IMG/VR virus record: IMGVR_UViG_3300017989_000052
Length of the DNA stretch: 64,000 nt
From: a virus
Taxonomy: Duplodnaviria > Heunggongvirae > Uroviricota > Caudoviricetes
Reading direction: 5' to 3' (one strand)
Shown: positions 1,621-54,307 of the stretch, one piece after another
How the letters are laid out: the number at the start of each line of letters is the position of its first letter
How positions within the stretch are numbered: the first letter of the stretch is position 1
Notes under the pieces: generated by a model
The model's database searches: none
The model's input: only the letters and a program-made list of their open reading frames with translations
Told to the model about the DNA's origin: nothing
Made by a program: the position numbers and the translations under genes

Positions 1621-2874
1621 ATGTCCGAGTTTCGAAAGGTATCCCTACCCAAAGGAAGAACTGAGATGAAGTCAACACACAAAGCATTTGTCGAGCCAAT
1701 TATTCTAAAGGAGCATCCCAATGCGGATTCCCTTTCGCTTGTAACAATTAAGGAAGTCTGGAATGTAGTTGTTCGGACTGAAGATTGGCAAGGGGTTGAC
1801 CGGGGGGTTTTCATCCAGCCGGATACCCTAGTTCCTGACACAGACCATTTTTCATTCCTCTTCAAAAAAACTTACCGTCTAAAGTCTGATAAAAATACGA
1901 GGGTTGCCGCAAGAACAATAGAAGAAGCTTTAGAGCTCCTAACAGAACAAGGGATTACTGTAACGGAGAAAGACCTTGAGACAGTTCTCTCAAATTCTCG
2001 TTATACAATGATGCCTGACGGGACCTCTATAAAAAGGGAAGATGGCGCATACGCGCGTGTCACTGTTAAAAAATTCAGAGGAATTAAATCTTTTGGGCTC
2101 CTGGTTCCAGCCCCAGAAGGAGCCGAGATCGGGGATAATTTAGCAGAGGAGCTCGGGCTCCAACATTACGAAGCCGCAATTAGCGCAGTAGGGGGAGAAA
2201 GCGAACGGGGACCCTCAGGTGTAACAGCTCCAAAATATGACGTTGACGCACTAAAGAATAACATCAAAGCTTTTGAAGAAGGGGAATTAGTTTCGATTTC
2301 TGAAAAAATTCACGGAACTAACGCTCGGTTCTTTTATGGGAAAGACTCTGATGAAGTGGAGAGGATGTTTTGCTCTTCTCATTATCATTGGAAAAAGGAT
2401 TCTCCCGCTTCTGTTTGGTGGCGAGCCCTCCGAGCACACCCCGAAGTTGAGCAATTTTGTAAAGAGAATCCTGACGTCGTAGTCTATGGGGAAGTCTACG
2501 GCAACCCGGTTCAAGGTTCTTACGATTATGGTCTTGACGACGCAGCCGTTGGTATCTTTGTCTTTGATCTTTTCCGGCTTCCAAAAGAAGGGGAGCCTCA
2601 AGGGCATTGGATCGATGTAAAGGAAGCCAGGGCAATTGGAAAAGATCTTCCTTGGGTTCCTTTGATCGCCCATGACGTCCCGTTTGACATGGAAAAAATC
2701 CTAGAGATGGCAGAAGGAAAGTCTACCGTTTCAGGAGTTCGGAAGGGGCATATCCGGGAAGGCGTTGTTGTTCGGCCAATGAAAGAGAGATCGATTACAG
2801 AATTAGGGCGGGTTTGTCTCAAAGTTGTTGGCTTCGGCTACTATGAGAAAAAACATAAAAAGAGAAACAAATGA
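1621..2874 (+). CDS. RNA ligase, Rnl2-type nucleotidyltransferase with N-terminal tRNA-binding-like OB domain
   Basis: Motif I EKIHGTN (as in T4 Rnl2), downstream VYGEVYG and GVVVRP ligase motifs; N-terminus carries KEHPNADSLSLVTI, which resembles the HPNADKL signature of Myf/CsaA/EMAP tRNA-binding domains. Confidence 0.65.
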   Translation: MSEFRKVSLPKGRTEMKSTHKAFVEPIILKEHPNADSLSLVTIKEVWNVVVRTEDWQGVDRGVFIQPDTLVPDTDHFSFLFKKTYRLKSDKNTRVAARTIEEALELLTEQGITVTEKDLETVLSNSRYTMMPDGTSIKREDGAYARVTVKKFRGIKSFGLLVPAPEGAEIGDNLAEELGLQHYEAAISAVGGESERGPSGVTAPKYDVDALKNNIKAFEEGELVSISEKIHGTNARFFYGKDSDEVERMFCSSHYHWKKDSPASVWWRALRAHPEVEQFCKENPDVVVYGEVYGNPVQGSYDYGLDDAAVGIFVFDLFRLPKEGEPQGHWIDVKEARAIGKDLPWVPLIAHDVPFDMEKILEMAEGKSTVSGVRKGHIREGVVVRPMKERSITELGRVCLKVVGFGYYEKKHKKRNK

Positions 2875-3188
2875 ATCTAGAATACCTCCTGGGTTTTGAT
2901 GACCTTGAGGAGAATCGTTTCTATTACATCGTCGTAAACAAGGATTCTCTTAAGAATGGTATTCCAAATTTGTTAACCCATAAGAATGAGAAAATCCGGT
3001 GGTGGGTGAAAGTAGAACATAACAAAGTTAACTTCTCGGGGGAGTGGCAACGTCTCTATAAAGAAAAACAGCTTCGGGTTATTTTTGTCGGACACACCCC
3101 TGAGAACGAGAAATCTTTTCAACAGAAGATTACCGATTGTCTCCTTTTGCGGGTACTAAAAGATATGACCGATCGTCTTGAGGCTTAG
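2871..3188 (+). CDS. hypothetical protein, LLTH-x-VR motif family
   Basis: NLLTHKNEKIRWW motif; ORF track. Confidence 0.4.
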   Translation: MNLEYLLGFDDLEENRFYYIVVNKDSLKNGIPNLLTHKNEKIRWWVKVEHNKVNFSGEWQRLYKEKQLRVIFVGHTPENEKSFQQKITDCLLLRVLKDMTDRLEA

Positions 3189-3289
3189 AAATGTAATAGA
3201 TAATCGCGATTAATTCTCATACCCTGGCCTTTCTTCCCCGACGCAAAAGGGTATAAAAAGAAAGGTTTTTTGGTATGAAGGATTAAAAG

Positions 3290-4306
3290 ATGGAAATTAA
3301 ATTCAAGGTAACAGAAAAAGATATTGGGGGTCTGTTACAGAAAGTTTTTGCGAGTAGGAAACCCAAAATACTTCGTTACTGGCGGCTTGAGAGCGAATCG
3401 CAATTTTTGATCCGGAACAATAAAATAATCGCTTCCTTCCCTTTAGCTTGTCAAGTGAATGAAAACTATTACATCTTTAAGCCTTTCCGGGTCATTTTAA
3501 GCGAGCCAGATTACCTTCCCCAAGATGCTACCTACGACAAATCGAAAAGGTCTATAAACCTGGCCCAGTTTTTAACGACAAAGGATGAGGTCGTTCGCAA
3601 AACTGCCCGATACGCTTTAAATAACCCTCCGATAACAGTTGATTGTAAATATGAAAGCCAGTATTTCCATAACGCCGCAGAGATTAAAAAGGCGATTTCG
3701 GGCTTTAGCGGGATTACAGTTAGGAAGAAACAAAAGCGGCGAGCGTTGTCCGACTTTAGAACAATTACTCTGAATTTTAGAAACAGGGTCTTTCTAAAGA
3801 TTAATGTTGATATTAAGAGCACAACAAAGCAAGAACTTTTACAAAGGGTAAAGGAAACAAAAGAAAAAGCAGAGAAAATCTATCCGGTACTTTTGAACAA
3901 AGATGTTCTATTTGAAGAATCCCAGGTAAATGAGGGCCATTATTGGTATGACCTGGCTCCAACTTATTTTTCAAAAGAAGCTGAGATTAAAGGGGTTACA
4001 CGAACAATAAGAACTTCTGTTTTCTTTGATTGTTATGAAATTGTTTTAGATGATATAGCGGGTATCGAATTTCTTTTACACCTACATGATTTAGTTCTAC
4101 CAACACTTCAAGCTTTCTTTAAAAACCAGAAGCAAGAATTTACTCTTCTTCTTGGGAAGGAAGATCTTAGGGTCTCAGCAGTTGACCTTAAAACGCGTAT
4201 TGTCCTGGGAACCTCTATTATAGATATATCCCAACCCGCAGACCTTGTTATCCAGGAATTGGAAGATCGCCTAAACGATTTAGAAACCGCATCTCTCCCG
4301 GTTTAA
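3290..4306 (+). CDS. hypothetical protein
   Basis: 338-aa ORF, coding-like composition, no motif recognised. Confidence 0.35.
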   Translation: MEIKFKVTEKDIGGLLQKVFASRKPKILRYWRLESESQFLIRNNKIIASFPLACQVNENYYIFKPFRVILSEPDYLPQDATYDKSKRSINLAQFLTTKDEVVRKTARYALNNPPITVDCKYESQYFHNAAEIKKAISGFSGITVRKKQKRRALSDFRTITLNFRNRVFLKINVDIKSTTKQELLQRVKETKEKAEKIYPVLLNKDVLFEESQVNEGHYWYDLAPTYFSKEAEIKGVTRTIRTSVFFDCYEIVLDDIAGIEFLLHLHDLVLPTLQAFFKNQKQEFTLLLGKEDLRVSAVDLKTRIVLGTSIIDISQPADLVIQELEDRLNDLETASLPV

Positions 4307-10259: not shown

Positions 10260-10799
10260 ATGAAACCAGAAACGATCTATGGTTTCCCCCGCTCTTTAAT
10301 CACTTACCAAAAGGGGAGGATTAAGAAGAGCGCAGAGGGGGTCAACCTAACTTTTAAAAAAATTCGTCCTTACCTTTCCTTAAAAACCCAAAGTAACCTA
10401 GAGATCTTTACGAAGGTTAAACAAATTACGTGGAAAAAGGTATGGGTCTTTTTCGTAAAACGAAGACGACGAGAATATTCAAAAACAAAGGTTACGTATA
10501 AAGAATATGAAAGAGCCTCTATCCTCATTGAAGGAAAAGACGAAAAAGGAATCGTTTACCAATATTGGAGAAAAGAAACGGCCCACCCAGGAGCGGGACA
10601 GACTCTTTTATATACTGAAGGGCGGAAACCAAAGCAAGCAATGAATATCATTGGAAACTATGCTAACGCCCATATGAAAGTTAAGCGTGCGATTAAAAAG
10701 AACGAGCTAAAGTCTTTATTAACAGACGAAGATAAATTTGTGCGAACATTCGCAAAGGAAGCATTAGGAGAACAAGATGGCGACGAAATACCCGACTGA
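10260..10799 (+). CDS. hypothetical protein, LLTH-x-VR motif family (KSLLTDEDKFVRTFAKEALG)
   Basis: C-terminal HEAT/PBS-like motif. Confidence 0.4.
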   Translation: MKPETIYGFPRSLITYQKGRIKKSAEGVNLTFKKIRPYLSLKTQSNLEIFTKVKQITWKKVWVFFVKRRRREYSKTKVTYKEYERASILIEGKDEKGIVYQYWRKETAHPGAGQTLLYTEGRKPKQAMNIIGNYANAHMKVKRAIKKNELKSLLTDEDKFVRTFAKEALGEQDGDEIPD

Positions 10800-12801
10800 C
10801 CCTACGAAACTGTCTCAGCAGGAAATCGAGGGATTCCTCCAGGAATGGAGCGATTCTTATTATAACACGGAAGACGCTAAATCCATTGCCCCAGATAATG
10901 TCTATGACCTATTCAAGGACTATTTGGAAGCGCAGTACCCAGACTCGACCTTCTTAAAGGTTGTCGGTGCCCCTGTTAAAGTTTCTGAATGGGAAAAGAT
11001 GGAGCATGAAATCCCTATGGGGAGTCTTGATAAAGTCCACAACGTGGATGATATTAAGGCTTGGTCTAGTTCCATCGGCGCTAAAAATTTCTGGATCACT
11101 GAAAAGCTAGATGGCATTAGCATTGAACTTCTTTATGACGATGGAAACCTTACAGCAGCCATTACCCGAGGGAATGGTAAAGTAGGGGAAAATATCTTAG
11201 CTAATGTCCAGCGGATGAAGAACGTTAAGCGAAAATTGGCCATTCCTTTTAATGGGACAATCCGAGGCGAGATCATTCTAAGGAAAAGCGAGTTCGCTAA
11301 ACTTAGCAGCGATGGGTATTCTAACCCACGAAACGCGGCAAGCGGTATCGCTCGGCGGTACGATGGGACCCAAGCAGAGCACCTTGAAATTCTTTACTAT
11401 GATATTATTGCTTATGATACTGAGCATGAAGACCAGATTACCTCCGAAGCAAGCAAAATCAAATTTATAAAAGGGCTTGGGGTCAAAGCGCTCGAAGGGG
11501 AAGTAGTCGACCTTAAGAAAGCCGATAAAGTCTACGAAGACTATAAAGCAGCAAGACGAGCAAAACTTGATTATGAAATTGACGGCCTAGTTCTAAAAGT
11601 TAATGACCTAGACATTGCCAACAAGATTAACGATACCGCAACAAGCGATAACTCAAACCCGAAAGCCCAAAGGGCTTGGAAATTTGACCAACCAATGGGG
11701 ATCTCCAAGCTAAAGAAAATTCTTTGGAGTACGGGAAAAGGTGGAAGTGTAACCCCCGTTGCGTTTTTCGAGCCCATTAGTTTAGCTGGGGCTTCTGTGC
11801 AAATGGCATCAATGCACAATTTAAGCATTGCTGAAGACTTAAACGTGAACACCGGCGATGAAATTATCGTCATTCGCGCGAATGATGTCATTCCACAGGT
11901 GCTTGGAATCCATAAAAAGCATAATAATAAGAAAATTGAAGTTCCTACTGTTTGTGGAGAATGTGGGAAAAACCTACATCTTGAAACTTCCCAGACAAAA
12001 GATCGGGTAATTAAGACGCTTCATTGCATTAACGAGGACTGCCCAAAATTGAAACTTGGGAAAATTATCCGGCTTATCGAGGTCTTTGAAATTAAGGATT
12101 TTAGCGAGTCTCGGATCCAGGCTTTATATGATGCTGGTTTTGTAAAAGATGCGGCCGATTTGTTTACATTTGACCGCGCCAAGGCAGCAAACCTCGAAGG
12201 CTTTGGAAAACGAATCTTTGATAAATTGGATAAACACCTAGAAGAAAAATCAAAGGTTTCGCTATCGCAGTTTCTTGCGGCTCTAGGAATTCGAACCCTT
12301 GGCCGCCGGCAATGGAAGAAAGTAGTTGATGCTGGGCATGACTCGTGGGATAAGATCGAGACCTTGATGCACCTCCCAGAACAAAATTTCGTAACGGAGC
12401 TTAGCAAAATCAAAGGGCTGGGGGAAGAAATTTGTAAAATGATGTACCAAGGCTTAGTAAAAAATAAAAGCTTTGCATCTAAACTTCTCCAACACCTAAC
12501 GATTAAAAAATCTGGGACTGCTGATGGGAAACTCAGAGGGTTAAACCTTTGCTTTACGGGGTTGCGCAAATTCAACGGAGTTGACCTAGCAAAGCTTATT
12601 CAAAGCGAGGGTGGGGCAGTTCGGAACTCGGTTAGTAAAAACTTGGATATGCTAATCGTTGCAGATTTAAACTCCGGCAGCTCGAAGATGAAGAAGGCAA
12701 AGGATCAGGGAGTTAAGTGTATTGAAGTGGAAGACTTCTTTAAGCAGTTCGGATTTGAAGCTGAAAAACCCAAAGCAGACGAGGAAGAAGACATCATCTA
12801 G
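10777..12801 (+). CDS. ligA: NAD+-dependent DNA ligase
   Basis: Adenylation motif EKLDGISIEL, C4 zinc finger CGECGK...CINEDCP, HhH region and C-terminal BRCT-like tail; 674 aa, typical LigA size. Confidence 0.85.
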   Translation: MATKYPTDPTKLSQQEIEGFLQEWSDSYYNTEDAKSIAPDNVYDLFKDYLEAQYPDSTFLKVVGAPVKVSEWEKMEHEIPMGSLDKVHNVDDIKAWSSSIGAKNFWITEKLDGISIELLYDDGNLTAAITRGNGKVGENILANVQRMKNVKRKLAIPFNGTIRGEIILRKSEFAKLSSDGYSNPRNAASGIARRYDGTQAEHLEILYYDIIAYDTEHEDQITSEASKIKFIKGLGVKALEGEVVDLKKADKVYEDYKAARRAKLDYEIDGLVLKVNDLDIANKINDTATSDNSNPKAQRAWKFDQPMGISKLKKILWSTGKGGSVTPVAFFEPISLAGASVQMASMHNLSIAEDLNVNTGDEIIVIRANDVIPQVLGIHKKHNNKKIEVPTVCGECGKNLHLETSQTKDRVIKTLHCINEDCPKLKLGKIIRLIEVFEIKDFSESRIQALYDAGFVKDAADLFTFDRAKAANLEGFGKRIFDKLDKHLEEKSKVSLSQFLAALGIRTLGRRQWKKVVDAGHDSWDKIETLMHLPEQNFVTELSKIKGLGEEICKMMYQGLVKNKSFASKLLQHLTIKKSGTADGKLRGLNLCFTGLRKFNGVDLAKLIQSEGGAVRNSVSKNLDMLIVADLNSGSSKMKKAKDQGVKCIEVEDFFKQFGFEAEKPKADEEEDII

Positions 12802-13695: not shown

Positions 13696-15189
13696 ATGGC
13701 CTCAAAAAAGCAAAAGAGAAAAAACCAATCTGGGGAATTAAGCCCAGAGAAGAGCGCAAGGCAGCTTGGTTTTGCGTCTTTTGCGGATTACCGTGAGTTT
13801 TGCCAGCGGCATCAAATCAAGCCAGGATTTTGGCCCGCCGATAGGATTAAGGCAATTCGAAAAGAAGAAGCACTAAAGAAGGCGGTCAAGCAAAAAAGAA
13901 AAGGCAGAAAAACAAAAAACGTTATCGAACAAATCTTTAGTGCTACAGCAACAAGCGAAATCGTTGACGCACATAAATTGAATACGGGGGCACTGCTTAA
14001 GTATAAGAAATCACTCGGGGCGCAGGCACAAAAAGACCTACTTGACTTTATCCTTTACCTTGATAAGAAGTCTAAGCTTGTTAACGAAGAGTATCTTCCC
14101 AGTCTTTTATTATTCTTTAAGTATAAGAAGTTTTGGATTTCTGAGTACGAGGGGTGGAAAGCGCCTTCTCATAATAAAGATAAGCAACTTAGCTCCCTAG
14201 CCCGGCACTTGTTTACAAAATATCCAATTCCCACTTTTATGGATAAAGCCTGGCAAGATGGGCTTAACTACTTCGACTTAAAGATAGAAAGCGAAGAATA
14301 CCGAAAATATAGGGAATGGTTTATTGAGCTAGGAAATGGAAAGAATCTCAGAAAGCTTAACAACTTACCATTCCCAATAACGAAAAAAGTTGCCCACCAC
14401 TTCCTTAAAGCTCCTTCCCACTTTCGGATTATGGATGCTTTCCGTTGGGGGCAAGTCCATGCTTTAGGAGGGGATGGGAGGTTGGTAGGGTATTTGTTAG
14501 GCTCCTCCTTAAGACAAAATTACGCTCACCACGAATTTTGGGAAACGGTAATTAAGTTCTTTATCGATAATCCAATGCTTGATTACTCCCATGTCGGGCC
14601 TATTATTGATTACATTAAAAATCAAAAGTTTGAACAACAACAGACCTACGTTAATGGGCAATGGCAAACAGAACCACCACCGCAACCAAATTTCTGTATG
14701 CGGGGCCGTAACCCAGAAACTTTATTGCGTCAAGTTGAGGGGTGGCACCGGGCCCTGCAGAAGTTAAAGGGCTCCCCAGACTCTTCTTGGGAACACTCTA
14801 ACTTTAAGGACTATGAATATATAGAGAAAGCAGGAAAACAAAGAATTATCTGGAGAATTACTGAGTTATGTAATAAGAAAGAGCTTGCTGAAGAAGGGCG
14901 AAAAATGCACCACTGTGTTGGGTCCTACGCTTCTTCCTGTGCTAGACGCCGTGTCGGTATTTGGTCTCTCACGGGAGAAACGCGGGACTCAACCGAAATG
15001 CATGAAAATAAACCGCCAGCTCCAGATATAAGCAGAACTAAACGTTTCGCAACAATTGAAGTCGATTTAGAAAATAAAACGATTGTTCAAGCACGGGGTA
15101 AATATAATGAAAAGGTTTCGGGGAAAGCTCGGAATATTATGACAAGGTGGGCTGGAGTTGAAAAGTTAAAAGTTGGAAGATACTTCTAA
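13696..15189 (+). CDS. hypothetical 497-aa protein; C-terminal region possibly PcfJ-like (KMHHCVGSYASSCARRRVGIWSL)
   Basis: Long ORF; the motif is recalled only loosely, so this is a tentative assignment. Confidence 0.4.
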   Translation: MASKKQKRKNQSGELSPEKSARQLGFASFADYREFCQRHQIKPGFWPADRIKAIRKEEALKKAVKQKRKGRKTKNVIEQIFSATATSEIVDAHKLNTGALLKYKKSLGAQAQKDLLDFILYLDKKSKLVNEEYLPSLLLFFKYKKFWISEYEGWKAPSHNKDKQLSSLARHLFTKYPIPTFMDKAWQDGLNYFDLKIESEEYRKYREWFIELGNGKNLRKLNNLPFPITKKVAHHFLKAPSHFRIMDAFRWGQVHALGGDGRLVGYLLGSSLRQNYAHHEFWETVIKFFIDNPMLDYSHVGPIIDYIKNQKFEQQQTYVNGQWQTEPPPQPNFCMRGRNPETLLRQVEGWHRALQKLKGSPDSSWEHSNFKDYEYIEKAGKQRIIWRITELCNKKELAEEGRKMHHCVGSYASSCARRRVGIWSLTGETRDSTEMHENKPPAPDISRTKRFATIEVDLENKTIVQARGKYNEKVSGKARNIMTRWAGVEKLKVGRYF

Positions 15190-15266: not shown

Positions 15267-15641
15267 ATGCTTCGGATGGACGACGTATATGAATTACGGA
15301 TTATCTTTCGGGAAGAAACTAGAGTTGTAGCATGTTATTATCTGAAAGAGATTCCATCCGAAACTGAAGTATTTGCGATGACCTTAAGTTTCATAAGCAC
15401 TCTTTATTATGTGACCGAAATAAAGATGGGGATTAGCCGGGGCCTCTTTTCGGTTAAACGAAAAAGACAGGTGTTTAGTGAGGTCCCCGGCTGGTCTTTT
15501 TATCGGGTAGAAGGACGAAAGATAGCAGCACAGAGACATAAACAATTTTGTCCTATACCAAACCTAAAAGAATTCCTGACTCACAAAGCTCCGGCAGTAC
15601 GAAACACTACCAAAAAATATTTAAATTTTTCTAAAAAATAG
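15267..15641 (+). CDS. hypothetical protein, LLTH-x-VR motif family (KEFLTHKAPAVRNTTKKYL)
   Basis: C-terminal motif. Confidence 0.35.
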   Translation: MLRMDDVYELRIIFREETRVVACYYLKEIPSETEVFAMTLSFISTLYYVTEIKMGISRGLFSVKRKRQVFSEVPGWSFYRVEGRKIAAQRHKQFCPIPNLKEFLTHKAPAVRNTTKKYLNFSKK

Positions 15642-17516: not shown

Positions 17517-17768
17517 AGGCTATGATCAAGCTTCCTTCTACAATCTTTAAATGACTTTAGCTTGGTCGCTTCCCTACCCATAAACCTATCATTTTTAAGT
17601 GCAGGCTATGAGTGGTCTTCCTTCTAAATTTCACTCAATGAAGAAAATTAGGCCATTCGCTTTCCTGCACTTTTCAATTTTCGAGGGCTATGGATAAGCT
17701 TCCTTCTACTACTTAACTCAGCCGCAAGGCTGAATTCATACTTAGCTTTCCGCTTTCCCTCAACAAAA
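17517..17768 (+). repeat. three tandem ~84-bp repeats (units start at about 17517, 17603, 17686), each beginning AGGCTATGR..AGCTTCCTTCTA and ending GCTTTCCCTNC
   Basis: Read directly from the sequence; they lie in the 465-bp non-coding leader of the 722-aa gene. Confidence 0.5.
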
Positions 17769-19957: not shown

Positions 19958-20485
19958 ATGGGGTATGAACTAAATCTCTACGTTGGGGAATTTTCCCTTG
20001 ATTACCTAAAGACCCCAGCCCTTCTCTGCCGACCTTTTGGTTTAATAGACCTTTGCAAAATTGGAATGTCGGAAATCTCGAAGCTCAATAATCTTCGTAA
20101 GGAAAAACCTCTAACCCAGCTTCAAGCATTTCTGTATGCTGAAGACGGGAATACGAAAATATTCGAAGATCCTATTGGAGAACCTCTTCGGGTTTGTACT
20201 TTCACTGAAACTCTTGCAGCACTAAAGACAGATGCTTCGCGTTCCAGCTATAGACGGTTCTCATGGGCTTTGGATTTATTAAGAGGAATTGAAAAAACAG
20301 AATTCGTCCCAGCCCTAACGTCCCAGCAACCCGAAATCAGAGCTTACGCAAAAAAACATTTCGAATTGCTTAAAAAGCTTGAACGAGATGGCGTGCGTTC
20401 AACCGCAATTCGGGAATTCCCTGCAGACAAAGAAAAATATATATTTGATATTCGTTGCGTTGGAGTGCTCCTTTTTGGGCACTAG
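19958..20485 (+). CDS. hypothetical protein
   Basis: ORF track. Confidence 0.35.
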   Translation: MGYELNLYVGEFSLDYLKTPALLCRPFGLIDLCKIGMSEISKLNNLRKEKPLTQLQAFLYAEDGNTKIFEDPIGEPLRVCTFTETLAALKTDASRSSYRRFSWALDLLRGIEKTEFVPALTSQQPEIRAYAKKHFELLKKLERDGVRSTAIREFPADKEKYIFDIRCVGVLLFGH

Positions 20486-20820: not shown

Positions 20821-20829
20821 ATCCTGGTT

Positions 20830-20922: not shown

Positions 20923-20936
20923 TAAGAAAAAGAAAA

Positions 20937-21329
20937 ATGGAAGCGGTCTGGATGGCGGAGCTAGAAGCTACTGGGAAATTTAAGATCTCCCGTATGCGGC
21001 ATTTTAAGAAAGATCCCTCCATGCGCGAACTAGCTCTTTGGGCACTTCAAGAAGTCGAAAGATCTATACAGCATGACAAAATTTTAGACGTCTTTAATTT
21101 CCGAATACACCGCGATGTAAATAGCTATAAACCATTCTGTACAGATTTTTACATCGCCACGTCTGTTGGTTATGTTGAAGTCTCCGTAAAGAAAAAGAAA
21201 TGGGAAGTATTTGATAACCTGCCTTGTGAAGCTTATCTCACCGGCGAGGGCCAACAAACAAGAGGGATCGCAAAGAAAATTAGGGAGAAGAAAATCCTTA
21301 ACATTTCAAACGAACAATTAGAAGGATAG
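20937..21329 (+). CDS. hypothetical protein, possible small PD-(D/E)xK-type nuclease
   Basis: Start moved to the MEAVWM ATG just downstream of the tRNA; the TDFYIA...YVEVSVKKKK pattern is a weak nuclease-motif match. Confidence 0.3.
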   Translation: MEAVWMAELEATGKFKISRMRHFKKDPSMRELALWALQEVERSIQHDKILDVFNFRIHRDVNSYKPFCTDFYIATSVGYVEVSVKKKKWEVFDNLPCEAYLTGEGQQTRGIAKKIREKKILNISNEQLEG

Positions 21330-23791: not shown

Positions 23792-24188
23792 CTTTTTTCG
23801 GGTGTGCAATGCCTGATATTATCATAAATAAGCCGACAGAAGAGGATCTCAAATCGCTCCCGGAATTCTGCAATATCGCAGTAATTAATGGAGCCCACAC
23901 AAAGTGGCTGCTCAGAGAATTCCAGGACGAAATTGGTTCTTTCTCTGTGGGTATCACGTTTATGCTAAATACTATTATCTAGACAACTACGCTTTAGTAG
24001 AAAATAATATAGAAGTCGAAGCGCGCTGTCTTGGGATACACGTATAGTAAGAATAAACCCCTCTTCCGTGATAAGAATCGCTGACTGGTTACCAGACCAT
24101 ATTCAAGCTATCCAATCAAATCCGCAGAGGTATTTAACCGGGGAAAGTGCAGTTACCCGAACCTTAGCTAAAACCTATTTAAAGCAAA

Positions 24189-24653
24189 ATGAATTACAAC
24201 TGGACAAAAAGCAAAGAGCGAATCCTTCTTTCTAAGCTCTTGACTTCTCAAAAATTTAATCATGGAGTTACCTGCTTTTTTGTTCCCCTAACAAAAGTAA
24301 TTGGGGCTAAGTTATTTGAACACTCTAAAGAACGAAACCAAGCTTTAACATTACAAAAGAAAGCCGCCAAGCATGGCCTAGCACCGAAGGCAGGGGAAAA
24401 GTTTTCTTTTTCTTGGAGAGTCTTTCCTTGGGATCTTTTTGAGGATGAACCCCAAGTTATAAAAATTTATGGGTATCTAACACAAATAGCAGAAACCCCC
24501 ATTACTTTATCCCCGAAGGAAGAGGAAGAGCTGGAAAAACGTCTTAGGGATATTGGAATTAGTGCTTTTGATTTACACGAAGATAATATTGGTAAAATCG
24601 GTAAAAATATTCTATGTATAGACTTCGACCACGAAAGCGTTGAAGCTATTTGA
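24189..24653 (+). CDS. hypothetical protein
   Basis: ORF track. Confidence 0.3.
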   Translation: MNYNWTKSKERILLSKLLTSQKFNHGVTCFFVPLTKVIGAKLFEHSKERNQALTLQKKAAKHGLAPKAGEKFSFSWRVFPWDLFEDEPQVIKIYGYLTQIAETPITLSPKEEEELEKRLRDIGISAFDLHEDNIGKIGKNILCIDFDHESVEAI

Positions 24654-27866: not shown

Positions 27867-28430
27867 ATGGATTATCAAAATCTCTATACAGAGCTGAGAA
27901 ATGGGACCCTAACCGAGGAAACACTCGAGGAGTTCCAAGGCTTGCTGGAGCTTCGGCTTCGCCAGAAGTACAAAAATGTTGCTCTCCTCGCATCTATTTT
28001 TGGTATGAGCCCACCTGATCTTATTCAGGAACTTTTAATTAAGGCGCTGCTCGCTGCTCGAACTTTCGATGAAGAAAAAACAGTTTTCACTACTTATCTC
28101 TACCGCTGTATAGATAACGAAATTTATAGTCGGCATCAAAGTTTTAGGCGAAACCTTAACAAAGGGGCTTTAGTCCAAAGGGAAGACGAAGACGTTCCTA
28201 TTACCGAACAAGGGTTTAATGAAATCGACAGTAAAGAGGAGTTAACTTTTCTTTTACAAAATCTCCCCAGACTTCCTGAGCGGGAGGAAATAATTCTCAG
28301 TTTAAGGTTGGTGGGCTTTACGTTTGAAAAGATTGGGAAAACGTTCGGCATATCTCGGGAAGCCGTGCATCAACGCTTCCATAAAAGCATCCTCCCGAAA
28401 TTGAGAGGCATCTTAAATGGGCGAATATAA
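27867..28430 (+). CDS. sigma-70 family (ECF-like) sigma factor
   Basis: Region 2-like FTTYLYRCIDNEIYS and region 4 HTH EREEIILSLRLVGFTFEKIGKTFGISREAVHQRF. Confidence 0.65.
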   Translation: MDYQNLYTELRNGTLTEETLEEFQGLLELRLRQKYKNVALLASIFGMSPPDLIQELLIKALLAARTFDEEKTVFTTYLYRCIDNEIYSRHQSFRRNLNKGALVQREDEDVPITEQGFNEIDSKEELTFLLQNLPRLPEREEIILSLRLVGFTFEKIGKTFGISREAVHQRFHKSILPKLRGILNGRI

Positions 28431-28827
28431 AATAGAAGAAATTAAGCAAGTAAGTTTTATTTTCACAGACGGCCTCCCTTTATGGGATTCGAATCTTACT
28501 TCTTTTCTTCTTACCGAAGATATAACAGTAAAAAGGCTTGGGCAAGCCTTGCTTTATTGCCTACAAGCAATGCCACCCCGCAAAGACCCTTCCAAGCTTA
28601 AAATTACCGAAATAATAGCAGGAAAGCTTTATAACCTTAGTTATTCTGTGGTTGATAAACTTTGTGGAGAACAGATAGAATATAGCAGCTCTTATGCTAT
28701 CAAGGTTAGCCCTTTTCTCCTCTCCCACTTTGTAAACACAACCACACTAAAAATCGCTCATGCAACTTCGCTGACATCGGAGATGATTGGGGCCCGGACA
28801 TTCGCCAAGGCGCTAAACAATGATTAA
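28417..28827 (+). CDS. hypothetical protein (weak LLTH family-like C-terminus)
   Basis: ORF track. Confidence 0.3.
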   Translation: MGEYKIEEIKQVSFIFTDGLPLWDSNLTSFLLTEDITVKRLGQALLYCLQAMPPRKDPSKLKITEIIAGKLYNLSYSVVDKLCGEQIEYSSSYAIKVSPFLLSHFVNTTTLKIAHATSLTSEMIGARTFAKALNND

Positions 28828-29239
28828 AGTTCTTTTCAGGCATTTTAAGGGCTATTACATCTCTTCCCCAGCATCCGTATTCTCTAAAATACTGGAAGTG
28901 CAGGATATCGAGGAGTCCACAATACGAGCCCTTGTGCTCAAAATGTTTGAACAAGAAATAGAAGAATTAGACGAACTTAAACTTATTCCGCCTTCTGCCT
29001 TAACTCTTGATGAATTAGCTCATTTTTCTACGGAAGAACAGAAAACCTTACGGGAGAGTGCTTTCCTTGTAAGAGCTAAGCTCTTGACCCCATCTGGAGA
29101 ATCCCAATATATAATTCAGTACCCAGAGGTTGAAGTATATATACCAGATTTCGCTGCAGTGAAATCTTTGCTTACCCATTCGCACCCAGGAATTAGAAAT
29201 TTTGCCAAAGAAACGTTGGGAGATTCTAATGACGACTGA
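28820..29239 (+). CDS. hypothetical protein, LLTH-x-VR motif family (SLLTHSHPGIRNFAKETLG)
   Basis: C-terminal motif. Confidence 0.4.
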   Translation: MIKVLFRHFKGYYISSPASVFSKILEVQDIEESTIRALVLKMFEQEIEELDELKLIPPSALTLDELAHFSTEEQKTLRESAFLVRAKLLTPSGESQYIIQYPEVEVYIPDFAAVKSLLTHSHPGIRNFAKETLGDSNDD

Positions 29240-36500: not shown

Positions 36501-36806
36501 ATGCTGGAGAAGAAGGACCCCGAAGCTTGCCTTAATACGTTATTTTGGGTGAAAGAAAAGGGCTTTCCTCCCAAGTATTGGTATCTAACTGAAAAGCATT
36601 TTATCGTTTTAAAAGAAAACGAAATCCCCGATAACCAGATTAAAGCGTATAAAAAAGGGACAGCCGCGTATACGCAACACATAGAGATTATCTCTGGCAA
36701 AAAAGTCGACCTTGAGATAGAAATAAAAAAAGATACGATTAAAACATTACTGAGGTCCCCTTCGCGGTTAATCCGCCTCTGGGCTAATCAGGAAAGATAT
36801 ATTTAA
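36501..36806 (+). CDS. hypothetical protein, LLTH-x-VR family-like (IKTLLRSPSRLIRLWANQ)
   Basis: C-terminal motif. Confidence 0.35.
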   Translation: MLEKKDPEACLNTLFWVKEKGFPPKYWYLTEKHFIVLKENEIPDNQIKAYKKGTAAYTQHIEIISGKKVDLEIEIKKDTIKTLLRSPSRLIRLWANQERYI

Positions 36807-38256: not shown

Positions 38257-38811
38257 ATGAAAACCACGGTATTTTTCAAACAAGTAAAGAATCCTGGAGT
38301 TTTAGGAACTCTTTTCAACTATATCCGAAAGTCTCTAACCCGGAATAAGGAAACAGCCGAAGATCTTATTCAAGAGGCGTTTTTTAGTGCTTGGAAAAAC
38401 CGGGAGAAATTAGAAGAGAAGAAACTTCTCTCATGGTTAAGGGTTGTAATAAAGAATCGGTTTATTGACCTTACTCGAAGAAAATGTGAAAAGGTTCCTA
38501 GAGATACTAGTTTCGATCTTTCGGATGACCCAAGAAGACACCCCGCCACAAAGGACCCCGCTTATGTAATAACCACAACGATGGCAGTGCTTTACGATCA
38601 AGATAAAATATTCGAAACGCTTGATGATGCTTTAGTTACCGCTATCAAGAGGCTAAATTCTCGCCGACGAGAAATTTTCTTATTGAGAACATTAGTAGAG
38701 CTTGATTACGAAATGCTTGCTAGCCGATATAAGCTCTCGGTGGGAGCAGTTAAAAAAGAAGTGTTTTATGCGAAAAAAGAAATTAAAGAAACGCTTGGGG
38801 AGCCTAGTTAA
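38257..38811 (+). CDS. sigma-70 family (ECF-like) sigma factor, second copy
   Basis: DLIQEAFFSAW region 2 and C-terminal region 4 HTH EIFLLRTLVELDYEMLASRYKLSVGAVKKEV. Confidence 0.6.
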   Translation: MKTTVFFKQVKNPGVLGTLFNYIRKSLTRNKETAEDLIQEAFFSAWKNREKLEEKKLLSWLRVVIKNRFIDLTRRKCEKVPRDTSFDLSDDPRRHPATKDPAYVITTTMAVLYDQDKIFETLDDALVTAIKRLNSRRREIFLLRTLVELDYEMLASRYKLSVGAVKKEVFYAKKEIKETLGEPS

Positions 38812-39121
38812 AGATAGGCAAGTATTTCTTTGCCCAGAAACGAACGGCCCCATGTTTATGTGTTAGCAAGGTATAGGGGTCAATAACATTTATATTATGA
38901 TGCAGAGTTAGCATTGTAAAGGTTGAGCCATATATAACATCTTTTTGATTTCCTCTAAGAAACCCAACTTTTTCAGGAATATCAAAGAGGTAACCAACCT
39001 GGACAAAATATTTTTTTGTTAGATAGATGAAATCTTCGCCCTTGACAAAGGGGGCCGATAGCAAACGATATATTTTGCCAAACTCTATTATAATATTACA
39101 GTTCTCATTTAAGCTCTTCAT
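38804..39121 (-). CDS. hypothetical protein, LLTH-x-VR motif family (YTLLTHKHGAVRFWAKKYL)
   Basis: C-terminal motif. Confidence 0.4.
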   Translation of the reverse strand: MKSLNENCNIIIEFGKIYRLLSAPFVKGEDFIYLTKKYFVQVGYLFDIPEKVGFLRGNQKDVIYGSTFTMLTLHHNINVIDPYTLLTHKHGAVRFWAKKYLPIFN

Positions 39122-40804: not shown

Positions 40805-42235
40805 ATGAATAAGAACCGAGAAAAAAGTAAGAAAGTGGCTTGTGACTTCTCTTCGAGAAGTTCCCCCCTTTTTCTTAAAACCAAGATGTTTAAAGCAGCA
40901 AACTATATCTTTGAAAAGTTAAATGCTGCTGGGCACTCCACTTATTTCGCGGGTGGTTGTGTGCGGGATTCAATCCTAAAACTATCTATTAATGATATCG
41001 ATATTGCCACTTCAGCAACCCCAGACGAAGTCCAAAAGCTTTTCAGGAAGTCTAAGGCGGTAGGGGCATCCTTCGGGGTTGTGCTTATTGATATTGATTC
41101 CATTCCGTTTGAAGTTGCTACTTTTAGGACTGATAGCTCTTATTCTGACGGGAGGCACCCCGATAAAGTAGAATACAGCAATGATCCCAAGATAGATATC
41201 CAACGTAGGGACTTCACAATCAACGGTCTTTTCTATGATGCTAAAACCGACGAAGTCCTTGATGTTGTGGGGGGTGTTAAAGACCTGGAAGCCGGAAAGG
41301 TGCGAGCAATTGGTAACCCGGAAGAAAGGTTTGCAGAAGATTACCTCCGGATGTTACGTGCTGTTCGGTTTGCTGCACGGTTTGGATTTGATATTGAGGA
41401 CGAAACTCTGTTAGCAATTCGAGGGAATGCCCATAAAATAAATGACTTAGCCGCCGAAAGGGTTAAAGCGGAGCTTACTAAAATTTGGGCCGGACCCAAC
41501 CCTCACTATGCTCTAGATCTACTTCGGACAACTGGGCTTCTCCAAGAAATATTACCGGAAGTCGCAGCTCTAGAGGGGGTGGAGCAGCCAAAGAAATTCC
41601 ACCCCGAGGGTGATGTTTATAATCATACATACTTTGCATTGAAAGCCATGTGGGAGGATTTGGGAGCTGATGTTTCTCCCACCCTTGCCTGGGGAGTTTT
41701 ACTCCACGACATTGGCAAACCACGGACTGCTAAGATAAATAGGAGTGGCCGGGTCAGTTTTAATGGGCATGACCACGTTGGTGCGAAAATGGCAGAAAGG
41801 GTTTGTGAGCGTTTGAAATTTTCAAATGAAGAACGAGATTTAATTATTACCTTAGTCCGCAACCATATGAAATTCTTGGTTGCCCGTAATATGAAAACCG
41901 TAACTCTTAAGAAGTTTTTACGAACTGAGGGTTTTGATCAACTCTTACAATTACATAAATATGATTCACTGTCGGGAATCGGGGACCTTTCAAACTATGA
42001 ATATACTCAACAAAAACTCGATGCTTTTGAAGCAGGCACCCTCCAAGACGGCCTCAGGCCGAAAATTCTCTTAAATGGCGAAAATTTGAAGGAATTGGGG
42101 TACGAACCGGGGCCCATGTTTGGCAAGTTCATTCGTGCTTTAGAGGACAAACAACTAAACGAAGAGATTAAGACTAAAGAAGAAGCAATTGGTTTTGCGC
42201 GAGTATACCTTGGGAAGGGTAAGAAGAATGTATAA
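40805..42235 (+). CDS. cca: tRNA nucleotidyltransferase (CCA-adding enzyme) with HD domain
   Basis: Pol-beta head GGCVRDSIL...DIDIAT, RxxRFAARF body, HD motif LLHDIGKP. Confidence 0.8.
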   Translation: MNKNREKSKKVACDFSSRSSPLFLKTKMFKAANYIFEKLNAAGHSTYFAGGCVRDSILKLSINDIDIATSATPDEVQKLFRKSKAVGASFGVVLIDIDSIPFEVATFRTDSSYSDGRHPDKVEYSNDPKIDIQRRDFTINGLFYDAKTDEVLDVVGGVKDLEAGKVRAIGNPEERFAEDYLRMLRAVRFAARFGFDIEDETLLAIRGNAHKINDLAAERVKAELTKIWAGPNPHYALDLLRTTGLLQEILPEVAALEGVEQPKKFHPEGDVYNHTYFALKAMWEDLGADVSPTLAWGVLLHDIGKPRTAKINRSGRVSFNGHDHVGAKMAERVCERLKFSNEERDLIITLVRNHMKFLVARNMKTVTLKKFLRTEGFDQLLQLHKYDSLSGIGDLSNYEYTQQKLDAFEAGTLQDGLRPKILLNGENLKELGYEPGPMFGKFIRALEDKQLNEEIKTKEEAIGFARVYLGKGKKNV

Positions 42236-43277
42236 ATTGCGAACCATCGCTGGGGATGAAGTAGCACTCTCTCTAGACAACCCCCTAAACCTTCTCGCTG
42301 AAATAAATAACGAATTGCGGGAAGAGGATATTCTTAAATGGGCTAAGCAAAATGATAAAAGTTTGCAACTCGCGAGATGTTTAGGAAAATTAGGCACTAC
42401 CAAATTCTACCTCACCTCCCTTAGAACTGGTATGGCGGTCGATTTGCTTCTCCCTCTTTTATCGGAAAAACTTCCTGCTAAGGTCATAGCAAAACTTCTA
42501 AAAGTTTGTGCCTTCTGCTCCGTAAACGATTCAAGGGTATTAAATCAGAGAATTAGAAGGTTTGCGACAAAATACTTGGGGAAAGAGGATGCGGCCTACG
42601 ACTTTGTTCTTCAAAAAAAGAGAAAAACTATTTCTCCCGACCTTTTCCTTGAAACTTTTAAGGACATTTCAAAGGAATTCCGGGAATTCCTTCGATCCTA
42701 CCCCTATCTCTTTGAAGGTTATCTTGAAAGGTTAACTACTGCATCAGAAAAAGAAACAAATTCTATTGTTGGGGCACTGGAAAATATTTTTGAGGAAGGA
42801 ATCAAAGAAAGTTACCCGAATACACTTACTATCGGCGTTTTAATTAAAAATAAGCGAGTCGTTCTAACGAAAAAAACGGTGGAGTTAAGGCTTAAGGCTC
42901 TTTTAAATGGAAAATGGATAGCGTACTGTCATAAATTTCTTGATGCCTATTTACGACAATATCGTCCAGAGTTCGTAAAAAAGAACATGGACTATGTTGA
43001 TAAAATTACTGTTCAGGTAATTCAAAAAGGCGATAAGAAAAATAAGGCGGCGATTCAATCAGCAGTCAAGAGGGTGAATAACCCTCGTACCCTAGTTAGC
43101 TTATTCACCCATACGGATCAAGTAATCCGAAAGATTGCGAAGCAAACAATTAAAAAGGGTAAAGCAGAGTTTATATATGAAGCCCTTAAGCAAAGAGTTA
43201 AAGAAGAGGTAGATCTCAATTGGGAAGAAATCCTTTCAACTGAAATTTACGAGCTTTTAACCTCTAAAGAGTTTTAG
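42228..43277 (+). CDS. hypothetical protein
   Basis: Start at the MYKLRT ATG overlapping the cca stop. Confidence 0.35.
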   Translation: MYKLRTIAGDEVALSLDNPLNLLAEINNELREEDILKWAKQNDKSLQLARCLGKLGTTKFYLTSLRTGMAVDLLLPLLSEKLPAKVIAKLLKVCAFCSVNDSRVLNQRIRRFATKYLGKEDAAYDFVLQKKRKTISPDLFLETFKDISKEFREFLRSYPYLFEGYLERLTTASEKETNSIVGALENIFEEGIKESYPNTLTIGVLIKNKRVVLTKKTVELRLKALLNGKWIAYCHKFLDAYLRQYRPEFVKKNMDYVDKITVQVIQKGDKKNKAAIQSAVKRVNNPRTLVSLFTHTDQVIRKIAKQTIKKGKAEFIYEALKQRVKEEVDLNWEEILSTEIYELLTSKEF

Positions 43278-45576: not shown

Positions 45577-45641
45577 AAAGATTTGACAACGTAGTTTTCA
45601 TCTCGATATACTTCTAAGATTCTTTCTCTACGTTGTCGGTT

Positions 45642-45713
45642 AAGCCGGTAGCTCAATTGGTTAGAGCGTCTGTCTTCCGGCGGATGATATGGGTTCGAAC
45701 CCCACCCGGCTTA
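45642..45713 (+). tRNA. atypical 72-nt tRNA-like gene; no canonical 7-nt anticodon loop, the best fold gives an 8-nt loop TCTTCCGG
   Basis: Perfect 7-bp acceptor AAGCCGG/CCGGCTT, D arm GCTC-AATTGGTTA-GAGC, T arm ATGGG-TTCGAAC-CCCAC, discriminator A; the anticodon stem pairs only as GTCTG/CGGAT with 2 G·U pairs. Confidence 0.45.
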
Positions 45714-45763
45714 TTTCAAAAAATTCCGGTTCACCTAACTTGGGTTTCTTAGGGTTAAAACAA

Positions 45764-52469: not shown

Positions 52470-52769
52470 CTAAAAAATTTTATTCATATAGCCCTTGGCA
52501 AAATTCCGAACGGTTTTATTTTCATGGGTAAGGAGGGATTCTGCCCGTACCTCTTTATAATCATAAGCTTTAAGGGAGGAACCATTAGAGAGGGTCACAA
52601 GATTATAGAAGAATTGATAAAATTCAGAACCCCTAACTAGGATATCGAAAAAATAGGATTTTTCATTGAAAGTATAGGTTACGTAAACTCGTTCGTCCTT
52701 AACGAAAGAAAAGACAACAAGAAAAAACGAGGTCTGGTTTCCTCTGCTTTGATATAGTTGCGAGTACAT
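52470..52769 (-). CDS. hypothetical protein, LLTH-x-VR motif family (ESLLTHENKTVRNFAKGYM)
   Basis: C-terminal motif. Confidence 0.4.
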   Translation of the reverse strand: MYSQLYQSRGNQTSFFLVVFSFVKDERVYVTYTFNEKSYFFDILVRGSEFYQFFYNLVTLSNGSSLKAYDYKEVRAESLLTHENKTVRNFAKGYMNKIF

Positions 52770-52830: not shown

Positions 52831-52835
52831 TAGGG

Positions 52836-53303
52836 TCATTCCTGGTATTCCCGCACAAAATCCCGAACAGCTTTATTTTCGTGCGTTAAAAGACTTTGAA
52901 TATTTGGAGCTTCGATTTTTTCACGTTCTATAACCTTGAAAACAATCTGTTCCTTTACGAGAAACGGTTTTCCTTTATGTTCTGCAACAAATTGTAGGTG
53001 AGCCTGGGCGGAAGGGGGGTGCCCAAAAAGCTTCTCGTAAAAAGTAACGGGGGGCTTAAGAGCAAGTTTATCAAAGGTAAAGTATAGAATTTTTGTTACG
53101 TTAGCATATCTCTGTGTTACTAATTTTGTAAGCACTATATAGGCTAATTGTTCCTTTGTAACAGAGTCAGAATCCGTTTCTAAAAGATAAGATTGTTTTT
53201 CTCTCCGGGGCGAATCAAAGCCCCCTAGCTTTTCCTGGGAGTTTCCTTCCTGGTCATTTCTTGAAAAAGTTGTAACCCTAACTATAACCTGAAAGTATGT
53301 CAT
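52836..53303 (-). CDS. hypothetical protein, LLTH-x-VR motif family (QSLLTHENKAVRDFVREY)
   Basis: C-terminal motif. Confidence 0.4.
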   Translation of the reverse strand: MTYFQVIVRVTTFSRNDQEGNSQEKLGGFDSPRREKQSYLLETDSDSVTKEQLAYIVLTKLVTQRYANVTKILYFTFDKLALKPPVTFYEKLFGHPPSAQAHLQFVAEHKGKPFLVKEQIVFKVIEREKIEAPNIQSLLTHENKAVRDFVREYQE

Positions 53304-53454
53304 GCATTTTCTCCGTTATATAAGATAAGGGTTATCTAAAATCTCCCTTAACAATTATACAAACCGCAAAAAAGAAATCCAGAGACGAACGAAAACAAAA
53401 TCATATCTTAAATTATGGTTAAATCGATGTATAATCTAGAAAAGGATAAATACC

Positions 53455-53850
53455 ATGCTAAACAAAACTGAACTTGAAGATGCTTTCGCACACTCATCAA
53501 CCTTAATCTTAGAGCCCAATGCTGATAGTCTTAAAGCCGTGCAACAGCTTGCTGACGCATTAAATGTTGATTTTGATTTTGATGAGGAAACTGGAGGTTT
53601 AATAGTTGTTGAAGCTCTTGATATGATAGATTCTATAGACGAATTAGAGCTCGCAGTAAATTGTATTAACCCTTATATTTTGAAAGAGGGATACATTTCA
53701 TTAATAAACGGGGCTACCTTCGCTGCAGTTATTTATTTCATTCCGGGAGAGACCCCACAATTAATTACTCCTTGCTCTGTTAAAGCAAAGTTTGAAGCGC
53801 CCAATGGAAAACTGGAAGTAAGTCTATACGACGAACAAGATGATGTTTAA
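53455..53850 (+). CDS. hypothetical acidic protein
   Basis: ORF track. Confidence 0.3.
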   Translation: MLNKTELEDAFAHSSTLILEPNADSLKAVQQLADALNVDFDFDEETGGLIVVEALDMIDSIDELELAVNCINPYILKEGYISLINGATFAAVIYFIPGETPQLITPCSVKAKFEAPNGKLEVSLYDEQDDV

Positions 53851-54307
53851 CCTTGAAAACGTCTATATCTTCGAAGAGGTTAAGGGAAGGCTTCAAAAGA
53901 ATGTGAAGTTTTTCATGGGACTGGAGGACGAAGAACTCTACTATGATTCCTTAGTTGATTTTTCCCGGAGTTGGAATCTTGATTTTTCTTGTTTCTTAGT
54001 TAAAAATAAACAAGAATATGCCGAACTCATACAAATCTTTTCCAAGATTAAGACGTTAACAAGGGGGGAAAGTTTTATTTGTACGAGGGTTTATCCGGAA
54101 CCTTTTCCTTTATTTTTCTTTATACGTGACTTTGAAGAGGATGACGTAATAGTCCGAGAAAAGTCGGTACCTAAGATTTTAAGCGAGACCGCACTGTTAC
54201 TTAAAGCAATCCAGGATAGCGATGTGTGTATGAAAGAATACCTTACCCATGAAGATCCCTCAACCCGATCAGCAGCGAAATACCATATAGACTTACGCAA
54301 ATCCTAA
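53840..54307 (+). CDS. hypothetical protein, LLTH-x-VR motif family (KEYLTHEDPSTRSAAKYH)
   Basis: C-terminal motif. Confidence 0.4.
   Translation: MMFNLENVYIFEEVKGRLQKNVKFFMGLEDEELYYDSLVDFSRSWNLDFSCFLVKNKQEYAELIQIFSKIKTLTRGESFICTRVYPEPFPLFFFIRDFEEDDVIVREKSVPKILSETALLLKAIQDSDVCMKEYLTHEDPSTRSAAKYHIDLRKS

Follow-up and report, generated by a model that had tools for sequence, protein, structure and literature searches.

A HEAT/ARM-like motif, mostly C-terminal, recurs on otherwise unrelated small proteins of a probable jumbo phage

Introduction

HEAT and ARM repeats (PF02985, PF13646 HEAT_2, PF13513 HEAT_EZ; in PBS-lyase form 'LLxDxDxxVRxxAxxALG') share a signature in which the end of helix A leads through a turn into helix B, namely L-L, a polar turn and V-R-x-x-A-x-x-L. 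Designed armadillo repeats, for example, contain 'LLTHDDSKV'. In this study, we describe a motif of about 20 residues with this signature that recurs in a 64,000-nucleotide stretch of a tailed-phage genome (IMG/VR record IMGVR_UViG_3300017989_000052; the whole stretch is hereafter called the window). The motif is found mostly close to the C-terminus of small proteins that are otherwise unrelated to each other, and it might act as a common docking or targeting tag.

Conserved modules at protein ends are known to direct diverse cargo. Examples are the capsid-targeting sequence of T4, where internal proteins carry short terminal targeting peptides, the cargo-loading peptides of encapsulin cargo, which are likewise short and terminal, and the P22 scaffolding protein, whose C-terminal helix-turn-helix with its essential basic residues binds coat protein. 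Further examples are the XVIPCD domain of Xanthomonas type IV secretion system effectors and the C-terminal domain of the type IX secretion system. In huge phages, a small domain can also be multiplied within one lineage, as described for Bacillus phage G, in which a zinc ribbon underwent a lineage-specific expansion to about 35 copies (Iyer et al., 2021; PMC7824862). Both the repeat type and small-domain expansions in jumbo phages are known. In the literature, we found no earlier description of the present motif family, nor of any case in which a solenoid repeat unit, as a single copy, is appended to the ends of dozens of unrelated orphan proteins from the same phage.

Results

The motif and its copies

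The motif was searched in 82.3 kb, comprising the 64-kb window and about 10 kb of flank on each side, which is about a quarter of the genome. ENA contig ERZ27256770:k141_416325 (335,479 bp; window position 17786 is record position 228603) contains the window in identical form, and Logan assemblies of three other sequencing runs contain the same sequence at 99.99-100% identity. Over 25 copies, the consensus reads hydrophobic-x-x-[LFY]-L-T-[HSG]-x-[NDS]-[PK]-x-[VI]-R-x-[FLW]-A-K-x-[YA]-L; in a shorter form the motif is [LFY]-L-T-[HSG]-x4-[VIT]-R-x-[FWL]-A-K-x-[YA]-L, and YKEVRAESLLTHENKTVRNFAKGYM is an example peptide. Arg is invariant (25/25), Thr is present in 24 and Leu in 23 of the 25 copies, and Lys is near-invariant. 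A Pro or Asp is often located 4-7 residues upstream of the LT of the motif.

A hidden Markov model (HMM) seeded with nine strong copies scored these at 30-37 bits, whereas the best score in 30 second-order Markov shuffles averaged 8 bits and reached a maximum of 13.5. The regular expression LT[HD]x5Rxx[AVTI][KR] gave ten six-frame matches and none in each of 30 such shuffles, and the motif thereby survives the shuffled-sequence control named in the original prediction, an earlier reading of the same letters. When an HMM built from strong copies only was applied to residue shuffles of the 104 called open reading frames (ORFs), 0 of 100 shuffles reached 10 bits. A relaxed expression, LT.{5}[VITA]R.{2}[AS][KR], matched 11 times in the same ORFs vs 0.018 matches expected from residue shuffles and adds ORFs 19958, 20937-21329, 24068, 28417 and 57118. 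This expression was picked after the copies had been seen, and therefore the weak copies are supported as a group and not singly.

In total, the window contains nine strong copies, two moderate copies that passed the independent HMM test and six weak copies, i.e., up to 17. Eight further copies are located in the flanks on the same contig. Flank copies, which were not used in training, scored 19-28 bits (including SLLTHPSKEVRKTAKKVLS, which ends at the stop codon, YLTNKNSEVRSLAKN, FLTHTNRTVRNAAK and FLTHDSPVVRHIARAYL) at a shuffle rate of <0.1 per 64 kb at 12 bits; four weaker flank copies were found besides these. The 25 copies in 82.3 kb correspond to about one per 3.3 kb and to about one gene in six, and extrapolation of this density suggests about 100 copies genome-wide. 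The original prediction had listed 11 copies. Nine of them are the strong ones, while those in ORF 36501 (LLRSPSRLIRLWAN, which is also outside the relaxed expression) and ORF 28417 (SLTSEMIGARTFAK as then listed) proved degenerate and were missed by the strong-only HMM. A family size of at least 11 holds nevertheless, since the earlier list had missed the copies starting at 3563 (ORF 3290-4306) and 43092 (ORF 42189-43277), as well as weaker ones starting at 20309, 21225, 24125 and 57352, all on the + strand.

Conservation acts on the protein

Whichever strand it is on, the motif is always read in frame with an ORF. Its Leu, Thr, Arg and Ala codons vary freely between copies at synonymous sites, and the motif sites coincide with no direct-repeat family. 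In addition, a diverged relative was found on JGI contig Ga0180433_10319905 (1217 bp; locus L014), which encodes orthologues of ORFs 52836 and 52470 with about 57% amino-acid and about 65% DNA identity to the window. In each orthologue pair, the 13-residue core LLTHxNKxVR[DN]F differs by one change, at a variable position, while the 18-codon stretches compared contain 3 and 6 silent codon differences and the residues just upstream of the core diverge. Taken together, the codon and orthologue comparisons indicate that the motif is conserved at the protein level under purifying selection.

A chance or compositional artefact would be expected to recur in shuffled sequence, and a translated DNA repeat (promoter, terminator or mobile repeat) to be kept as DNA. 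Practically zero matches are expected in both DNA- and protein-level shuffles, the codons vary synonymously without any DNA repeat family at the sites, and the motif keeps to coding frames and persists in diverged orthologues. Chance and DNA-repeat explanations are excluded by these shuffle, codon and repeat controls, nothing was found in their favour, and we give them practically no weight.

Modularity, position and orphan status

In 17 of the 25 copies, the motif ends at most 20 residues from the stop codon, vs 6 expected at random, and none of 200,000 simulations reached 17. In most copies, a short variable linker precedes the motif and 1-20 residues separate it from the C-terminus; some copies are internal. 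The C-terminal placement first proposed does not hold for ORF 2871, in which the motif is internal and 55 residues away from the stop.

Carriers range from 20 to 362 residues. Pairwise BLAST between them returned similarity limited to the motif and a few preceding residues, in line with their initial description as otherwise dissimilar ORFs. Each carrier has one HMM match, and a low-threshold scan of the larger carriers revealed no periodic extra copies except for fragments in ORF 42189, namely a partial copy RIRRFATKYLG (residues 119-130) and a half-motif IYELLTSKEF cut by the stop codon. ORF 42189 may be related to the single-copy carriers as a degenerate form with several repeats. None of the carriers matched a Pfam or PHROG family. 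When ORF 52836 served as query for an exhaustive phmmer run on 1.84 billion cluster representatives, the only matches were the query itself and a 3954-aa mucin-like protein, which was rejected as a homologue because 13 copies of a weakly similar unit inflate its score; that the family was not recognised at first is borne out by these searches. The motif-alignment profile vs 5.8 billion sequences returned only the first query protein, in a search where a 20-column profile cannot reach significance.

Alternatively, the carriers might be members of one fast-evolving paralogous family in which only a constrained C-terminal helical cap is still recognisable, with neither a partner nor a tag. Such an expansion would have its precedent in the zinc ribbons of phage G, the conserved residues are those that define a fold, and in some pairs the stretch 15-30 residues ahead of the motif is weakly similar (a 'YKEV' or 'P-x3-5' lead-in). 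However, the carriers differ in length by more than an order of magnitude, the relative position of the motif varies widely up to a copy that stands alone as a mini-ORF, and no pair aligns with a convincing E-value outside the motif region. The two orthologues of ORF 52470 also speak against a single domain. They have kept the N-terminal domain and the motif, while about 20 residues between them have diverged, and therefore the protein resembles a module on a linker, i.e., two modules joined by a diverged linker. We regard common descent of whole carriers as unlikely, although it deserves to be taken seriously.

Next to these orthologues, the related contig carries a third ORF (735-1139 of L014) with an internal motif variant, LLTHNYRILRYLAQ, and without a counterpart in the window. 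Gene content of this cluster turns over between relatives.

Likeness to HEAT/ARM repeats and predicted structure

The nine strong copies, when concatenated, matched Pfam HEAT with an E-value of 9.5e-12 (44.5 bits) and HEAT_2 with 2e-8. Twelve strong copies without that of ORF 10260, the most canonical HEAT-like copy, still gave HEAT 1.9e-12 and HEAT_2 5e-8, together with HEAT_EZ at 0.003 and two TOG/CLASP families below their cut-offs. A concatenation shuffled within segments matched none of these families, and none of the single copies or carriers reached Pfam HEAT significance alone. On sequence grounds, the HEAT/ARM signature is thus present as a property of the family that is seen only in summed copies, and the HEAT/PBS-like resemblance that had been noted for the pattern stands at this level only. 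No carrier contains a tandem array of at least three repeats, as in an alpha-solenoid. When a 17-copy profile was compared with PDB sequences, designed armadillo repeats came out on top (LVELLTHDDSKV, summed E-value 0.002).

The motif is weakly predicted to form a helix-turn-helix module of about 20-26 residues, in which the first helix would end with [LFY]-L, the turn would be formed by T-[HSG]-x-[ND]-[PK] and the second helix by x-[VI]-R-x-[FWL]-A-K-x-Y-L. In a single-sequence AlphaFold2 (AF2) model of ORF 28820, the motif is modelled as a helix (residues 111-119), a turn and a second helix (residues 123-133), at a mean predicted local distance difference test (pLDDT) score of only 43.7; this low-confidence model also contains beta strands. 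The corresponding model of ORF 42189 is all-helical with a pLDDT of 38 (low confidence).

Next in the PDB search was a segment of the U1-C zinc finger, 'YLTHDSPSVRK', with an E-value of 0.14-0.7. This local likeness to the U1-type zinc finger (PF06220) raises the alternative that the motif is a small nucleic-acid-binding helix-turn-helix and that the carriers are DNA- or RNA-binding regulators. The second helix is basic, with its invariant Arg and near-invariant Lys, several carriers are very basic (e.g., that of ORF 10260), and the summed copies reach 22 bits with Pfam zf-U1. On the other hand, the likeness spans only 11 profile positions, no helix-turn-helix family was matched and the HEAT match is far stronger. 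Neither the 17-sequence alignment nor the frequency table of the 25 copies shows a conserved Cys or His at ligand positions, so the Cys2His2 ligands of the zinc finger are absent. The resemblance is most likely coincidental because of the few matching positions and these absent ligands, and a role of the motif in nucleic-acid binding seems very improbable to us.

Distribution outside this genome

In 118 kb from five related phage loci, which encode the TerD-family protein at 41-54% identity and include a 327-kb contig and the 485-kb LR745208, no match to the motif HMM reached 12 bits. The motif is missing from the relatives with 54% identity, which also show no synteny. In INPHARED (50,697 genomes), tblastn with concatenated motifs returned nothing at E-values up to 1. 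Narrow pattern scans of IMG/VR gave no confirmed match, and two matches to a degenerate DNA pattern were non-coding and rejected as chance. In GTDB (185,579 species genomes), the pattern TH[ESK][NH][KPG][ATG][VI]R[NDF][FW] gave 44 matches, none of which was confirmed; host proteins that use the same motif as a linear docking motif for a host hub were not found in this narrow scan, in which diverged versions could be missed. Among JGI metagenome contigs, narrow patterns retrieved only the orthologous contig L014 and one chance match, a high-GC bacterial contig (L015) with 'SLLTHENKTVRF' in a 239-aa ORF, which was rejected. Thus the motif appears confined to this phage lineage, as far as narrow patterns reach, since these would miss diverged versions. 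Within the same limit it is not found in unrelated genomes, and the two ways in which the original prediction could have failed, an insignificant or a generic motif, are set aside by the shuffle controls and the distribution scans.

Carrier genes and their surroundings

The carriers and other features are listed in Table 1. By inspection, many carriers overlap or abut enzyme or sigma factor genes. ORF 2871 overlaps the stop of an RNA ligase gene (1621-2874) and ORF 10260 the start of a gene for NAD-dependent DNA ligase. ORF 19958, whose motif is probably a degenerate copy, is located directly downstream of the 722-aa TerD-family gene, ORF 28417 directly downstream of a sigma-70-type factor gene and ORF 42189 downstream of the gene for a CCA-adding enzyme. 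ORF 38804 is convergent with the second sigma factor gene. ORF 24068..24235 is a tentative gene. Scans for promoters and terminators near the carriers yielded nothing informative.

Table 1. Coordinates of motif carriers and other features, in window positions unless a flank locus is named. Bit scores in the motif rows refer to the HMM indicated.
Feature	Coordinates	Strand	Motif (position)	Motif class and remarks
Mini-ORF, motif only, 20 codons	1536..1595	+	MIEKYLTHSNLEVRKVIKKS	strong; 34.8 bits, seed HMM
105-aa ORFan	2871..3188	+	LLTHKNEKIRWWVK (2961-3020)	strong; 31.3 bits, strong-only HMM; public gene call
338-aa ORFan	3290..4306	+	FLTTKDEVVRKTARYAL (3563-3619)	moderate, internal; 13.8 bits, strong-only HMM
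179-aa basic ORFan	10260..10799	+	SLLTDEDKFVRTFAKEALG (10707-10766)	strong, C-terminal; seed HMM
124-aa ORFan	15267..15641	+	FLTHKAPAVRNTTKKYL (15564-15623)	strong, C-terminal; 32.0 bits, strong-only HMM
175-aa ORFan	19958..20485	+	ALTSQQPEIRAYAKKHF (20309-20362)	weak; relaxed expression; 4.4 bits, strong-only HMM
130-aa ORFan	20937..21329	+	YLTGEGQQTRGIAKKI (21225-21284)	weak; relaxed expression; strong-only HMM negative
55-codon ORF	24068..24235	+	YLTGESAVTRTLAKTYL (24125-24181)	weak; relaxed expression; no public gene call
136-aa ORFan	28417..28827	+	SLTSEMIGARTFAKALNND	weak, C-terminal; relaxed expression; strong-only HMM negative
139-aa ORFan	28820..29239	+	SLLTHSHPGIRNFAKETLG (29159-29218)	strong, C-terminal; HMM
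101-aa ORFan	36501..36806	+	TLLRSPSRLIRLWANQERYI	degenerate, C-terminal; loosest expression only; strong-only HMM negative
105-aa ORFan	38804..39121	-	TLLTHKHGAVRFWAKKYL (38819-38875)	strong, C-terminal; 34.5 bits, strong-only HMM
362-aa protein	42189..43277	+	SLFTHTDQVIRKIAKQTI (43092-43151)	moderate; 11.7 bits, strong-only HMM
99-aa ORFan	52470..52769	-	SLLTHENKTVRNFAKGYM (52485-52541)	strong, C-terminal; HMM; orthologue in L014
155-aa ORFan	52836..53303	-	SLLTHENKAVRDFVREYQE (52842-52901)	strong, C-terminal; HMM; orthologue in L014
155-aa ORFan	53840..54307	+	YLTHEDPSTRSAAKYHI (54230-54289)	strong, C-terminal; 30.3 bits, strong-only HMM
120-aa ORFan	57118..57480	+	FFLTSPDPLIRSLSRRYR (57352-57411)	weak; relaxed expression
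NAD-salvage/RNA-repair regions	490-2874, 10777-12801, 27246-27779, 37026-38255, 40805-42235; L005 5902-10621			
Sigma-70-type factors	27867-28430, 38257-38811; downstream flank L009 13457-13993			at least three in 82 kb
Intergenic sequence copies	54310-54333, 56152-56175, 58956-58979	+		

The ATG of the mini-ORF directly follows the TAA of ORF 1107-1532 in the same frame, and this junction is identical in the Logan assembly of another sequencing run (99.99-100% identical). The two ORFs might represent one gene that has been split, a case of termination-reinitiation or a source of free motif peptide. Stop-codon reassignment is unlikely, since TAA, TAG and TGA all terminate ordinary ORFs in the window. 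For ORF 20937, the start of the public gene call was adopted because the longer ORF (20742-21329) runs over a 95-nt tRNA-Ile(TAT) called by ARAGORN at 20829-20923; the real gene therefore starts at 20937. A gene for a PcfJ-like protein (497 aa, 13696-15189; Pfam PF14284, E-value 3e-12) was seen just upstream of carrier ORF 15267.

The gene for a ClpS homologue (29202-29510; Pfam ClpS, E-value 2e-16) comes after ORF 28820, and motif carriers thus adjoin clpS as well as two sigma genes. Potentially, the motif might be recognised for timed proteolysis or for some other control after translation, for instance via this ClpS-like adaptor, by which the whole class would be removed together. That clpS lies directly downstream of two carrier genes and that many carriers look like small accessory proteins would fit such a role. 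ClpS, however, reads residues at the N-terminus instead of helices at the C-terminus, the very last residues of the carriers vary, and the motif resembles a structured, HEAT-like unit rather than a degron, which would be short and unstructured. Moreover, only two of the 25 copies adjoin clpS. Control by proteolysis is accordingly given little credence here.

The sequence has a G+C content of about 42% and carries its genes mainly on the + strand. The best INPHARED match is a 485-kb uncultured huge phage (LR745208.1) with 46% amino-acid identity on the TerD-family protein. The replicon is probably a jumbo phage, a reading that goes no further because no structural gene is present in the 82 kb read. 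The same gene content bears on a further alternative, in which the motif is a signal for virion packaging and ejection: the basic C-terminal helix-turn-helix would bind the procapsid interior or a scaffold, and the proteins would be packaged and injected with the DNA. A single terminal tag on diverse cargo, the C-terminal bias and the conserved Arg and Lys on the second helix are what one would expect from it. The carriers, though, are found among RNA-repair, NAD-salvage, ligase and sigma-factor genes instead of structural genes, the 82 kb contain no capsid, portal or scaffold gene, and nothing ties the motif to the virion. Packaging is therefore considered quite unlikely.

Genes for NAD+ salvage are dense in this region (NAPRTase, NAD synthase, two NMNAT-like proteins, one of them in the upstream flank, and Nudix), with the rest of the set just upstream of the window. 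RNA-repair genes are dense as well (PNKP, three RNA ligases, a LigT-like 2',5' RNA ligase, a CCA-adding enzyme and tRNAs). Together, these regions resemble an island for counter-defence, directed at NAD depletion and at the cleavage of tRNAs. Other genes encode a 5'-3' exonuclease and radical SAM enzymes, and seven tRNA genes were predicted. A tRNA cluster at 57931-58705 contains two of the three tRNA-Leu(TAA) genes of the window together with Lys and Met, and one ARAGORN call with a two-base anticodon is located at 45641-45714.

The TerD-family protein (722 aa, 17786-19954) has no Pfam match by itself; its family is widespread among actinobacteria, including Streptomyces (46-48% identity), and among huge phages. 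In the 470-nt gap upstream of its gene, the 24-nt sequence GGCTATGATCAAGCTTCCTTCTAC occurs in three copies (17518-17709; 75-100% identity, 82-86 nt spacing). Another conserved sequence, CC-n-AATATA(T/A)(A/T)TAAGGTAGG, is found between genes at three sites, all on the + strand and immediately ahead of a gene, whereas 0 such sites would be expected from chance alone. Probably, it combines a phage promoter with a ribosome-binding site.

Discussion

In this study, a short module was found to be spread over about one gene in six of the sequence read. We tentatively favour the reading that it is a portable, HEAT/ARM-like hairpin specific to this lineage and that the carriers share it as a tag for docking or targeting; we hold this to be a good possibility though short of probable. 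The module would have undergone a lineage-specific expansion by which it was spread within one genome over otherwise unrelated carriers. On each carrier, the single hairpin would pack against the same surface of one common receptor, which might be a phage or host scaffold or hub, perhaps solenoid-like, and which would gather many small proteins at one site or on one machine. We infer docking, and a single partner for it, from two points: a lone HEAT hairpin cannot form a solenoid, and the bodies that carry it are unrelated.

Several points weigh against a docking tag. Among the precomputed Pfam annotations for the 82 kb, none points to a HEAT, ARM or TPR array protein, and no partner was identified. 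The best-conserved residues (L, L, V/I, R and A) are those that define the HEAT fold and are not an obvious binding surface; therefore their conservation could reflect folding alone. The hairpin conformation is weakly supported because of the pLDDT values of 38-44. In addition, six of the window copies are degenerate and backed only as a group by a post hoc pattern, and the sequence read covers only a quarter of the genome.

In its most far-reaching form, the docking tag would be the address tag of an undescribed phage system, in which the hairpin completes or docks onto a single receptor (for instance a scaffold resembling a solenoid, the inside of the capsid or a hub of the host) and thereby routes dozens of unrelated small proteins to one site. 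We put this forward as a conceivable, on balance doubtful, extension. The free 20-residue peptide of the mini-ORF could then be a competitor or regulator of docking.

Huge phages are rich in proteins without known relatives, and the carriers described here share a selected module. If the module is a docking tag, finding its receptor would place a whole class of dozens of orphan proteins functionally, and the motif might become a portable 20-residue tool. A common receptor, if it exists, would represent a new kind of phage protein-addressing system. If the module is not a tag, it would still be a rare case of a single solenoid repeat unit outside an array, spread over unrelated proteins in one lineage.

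In comparison with known systems, terminal tags follow the same logic as proposed here, in that variable bodies are combined with one conserved terminal module that is read by a common machine. They have no sequence similarity to the motif, whose role as a tag is a proposal. The zinc ribbons of phage G are likewise one small module that was multiplied in a single huge-phage lineage and whose function is unknown. The motif described here differs from them in that it would be a helical hairpin without metal ligands and in that it forms a terminal appendage and not the core of each paralogue. HEAT and ARM repeats are closest in sequence, but HEAT has variable residues or Asp where the motif has its Thr and a frequent His. 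HEAT/ARM proteins are tandem solenoid arrays, whereas here one copy is present per protein (perhaps 2-3 degenerate ones in ORF 42189), and the motif is borne with a C-terminal bias by unrelated bodies.

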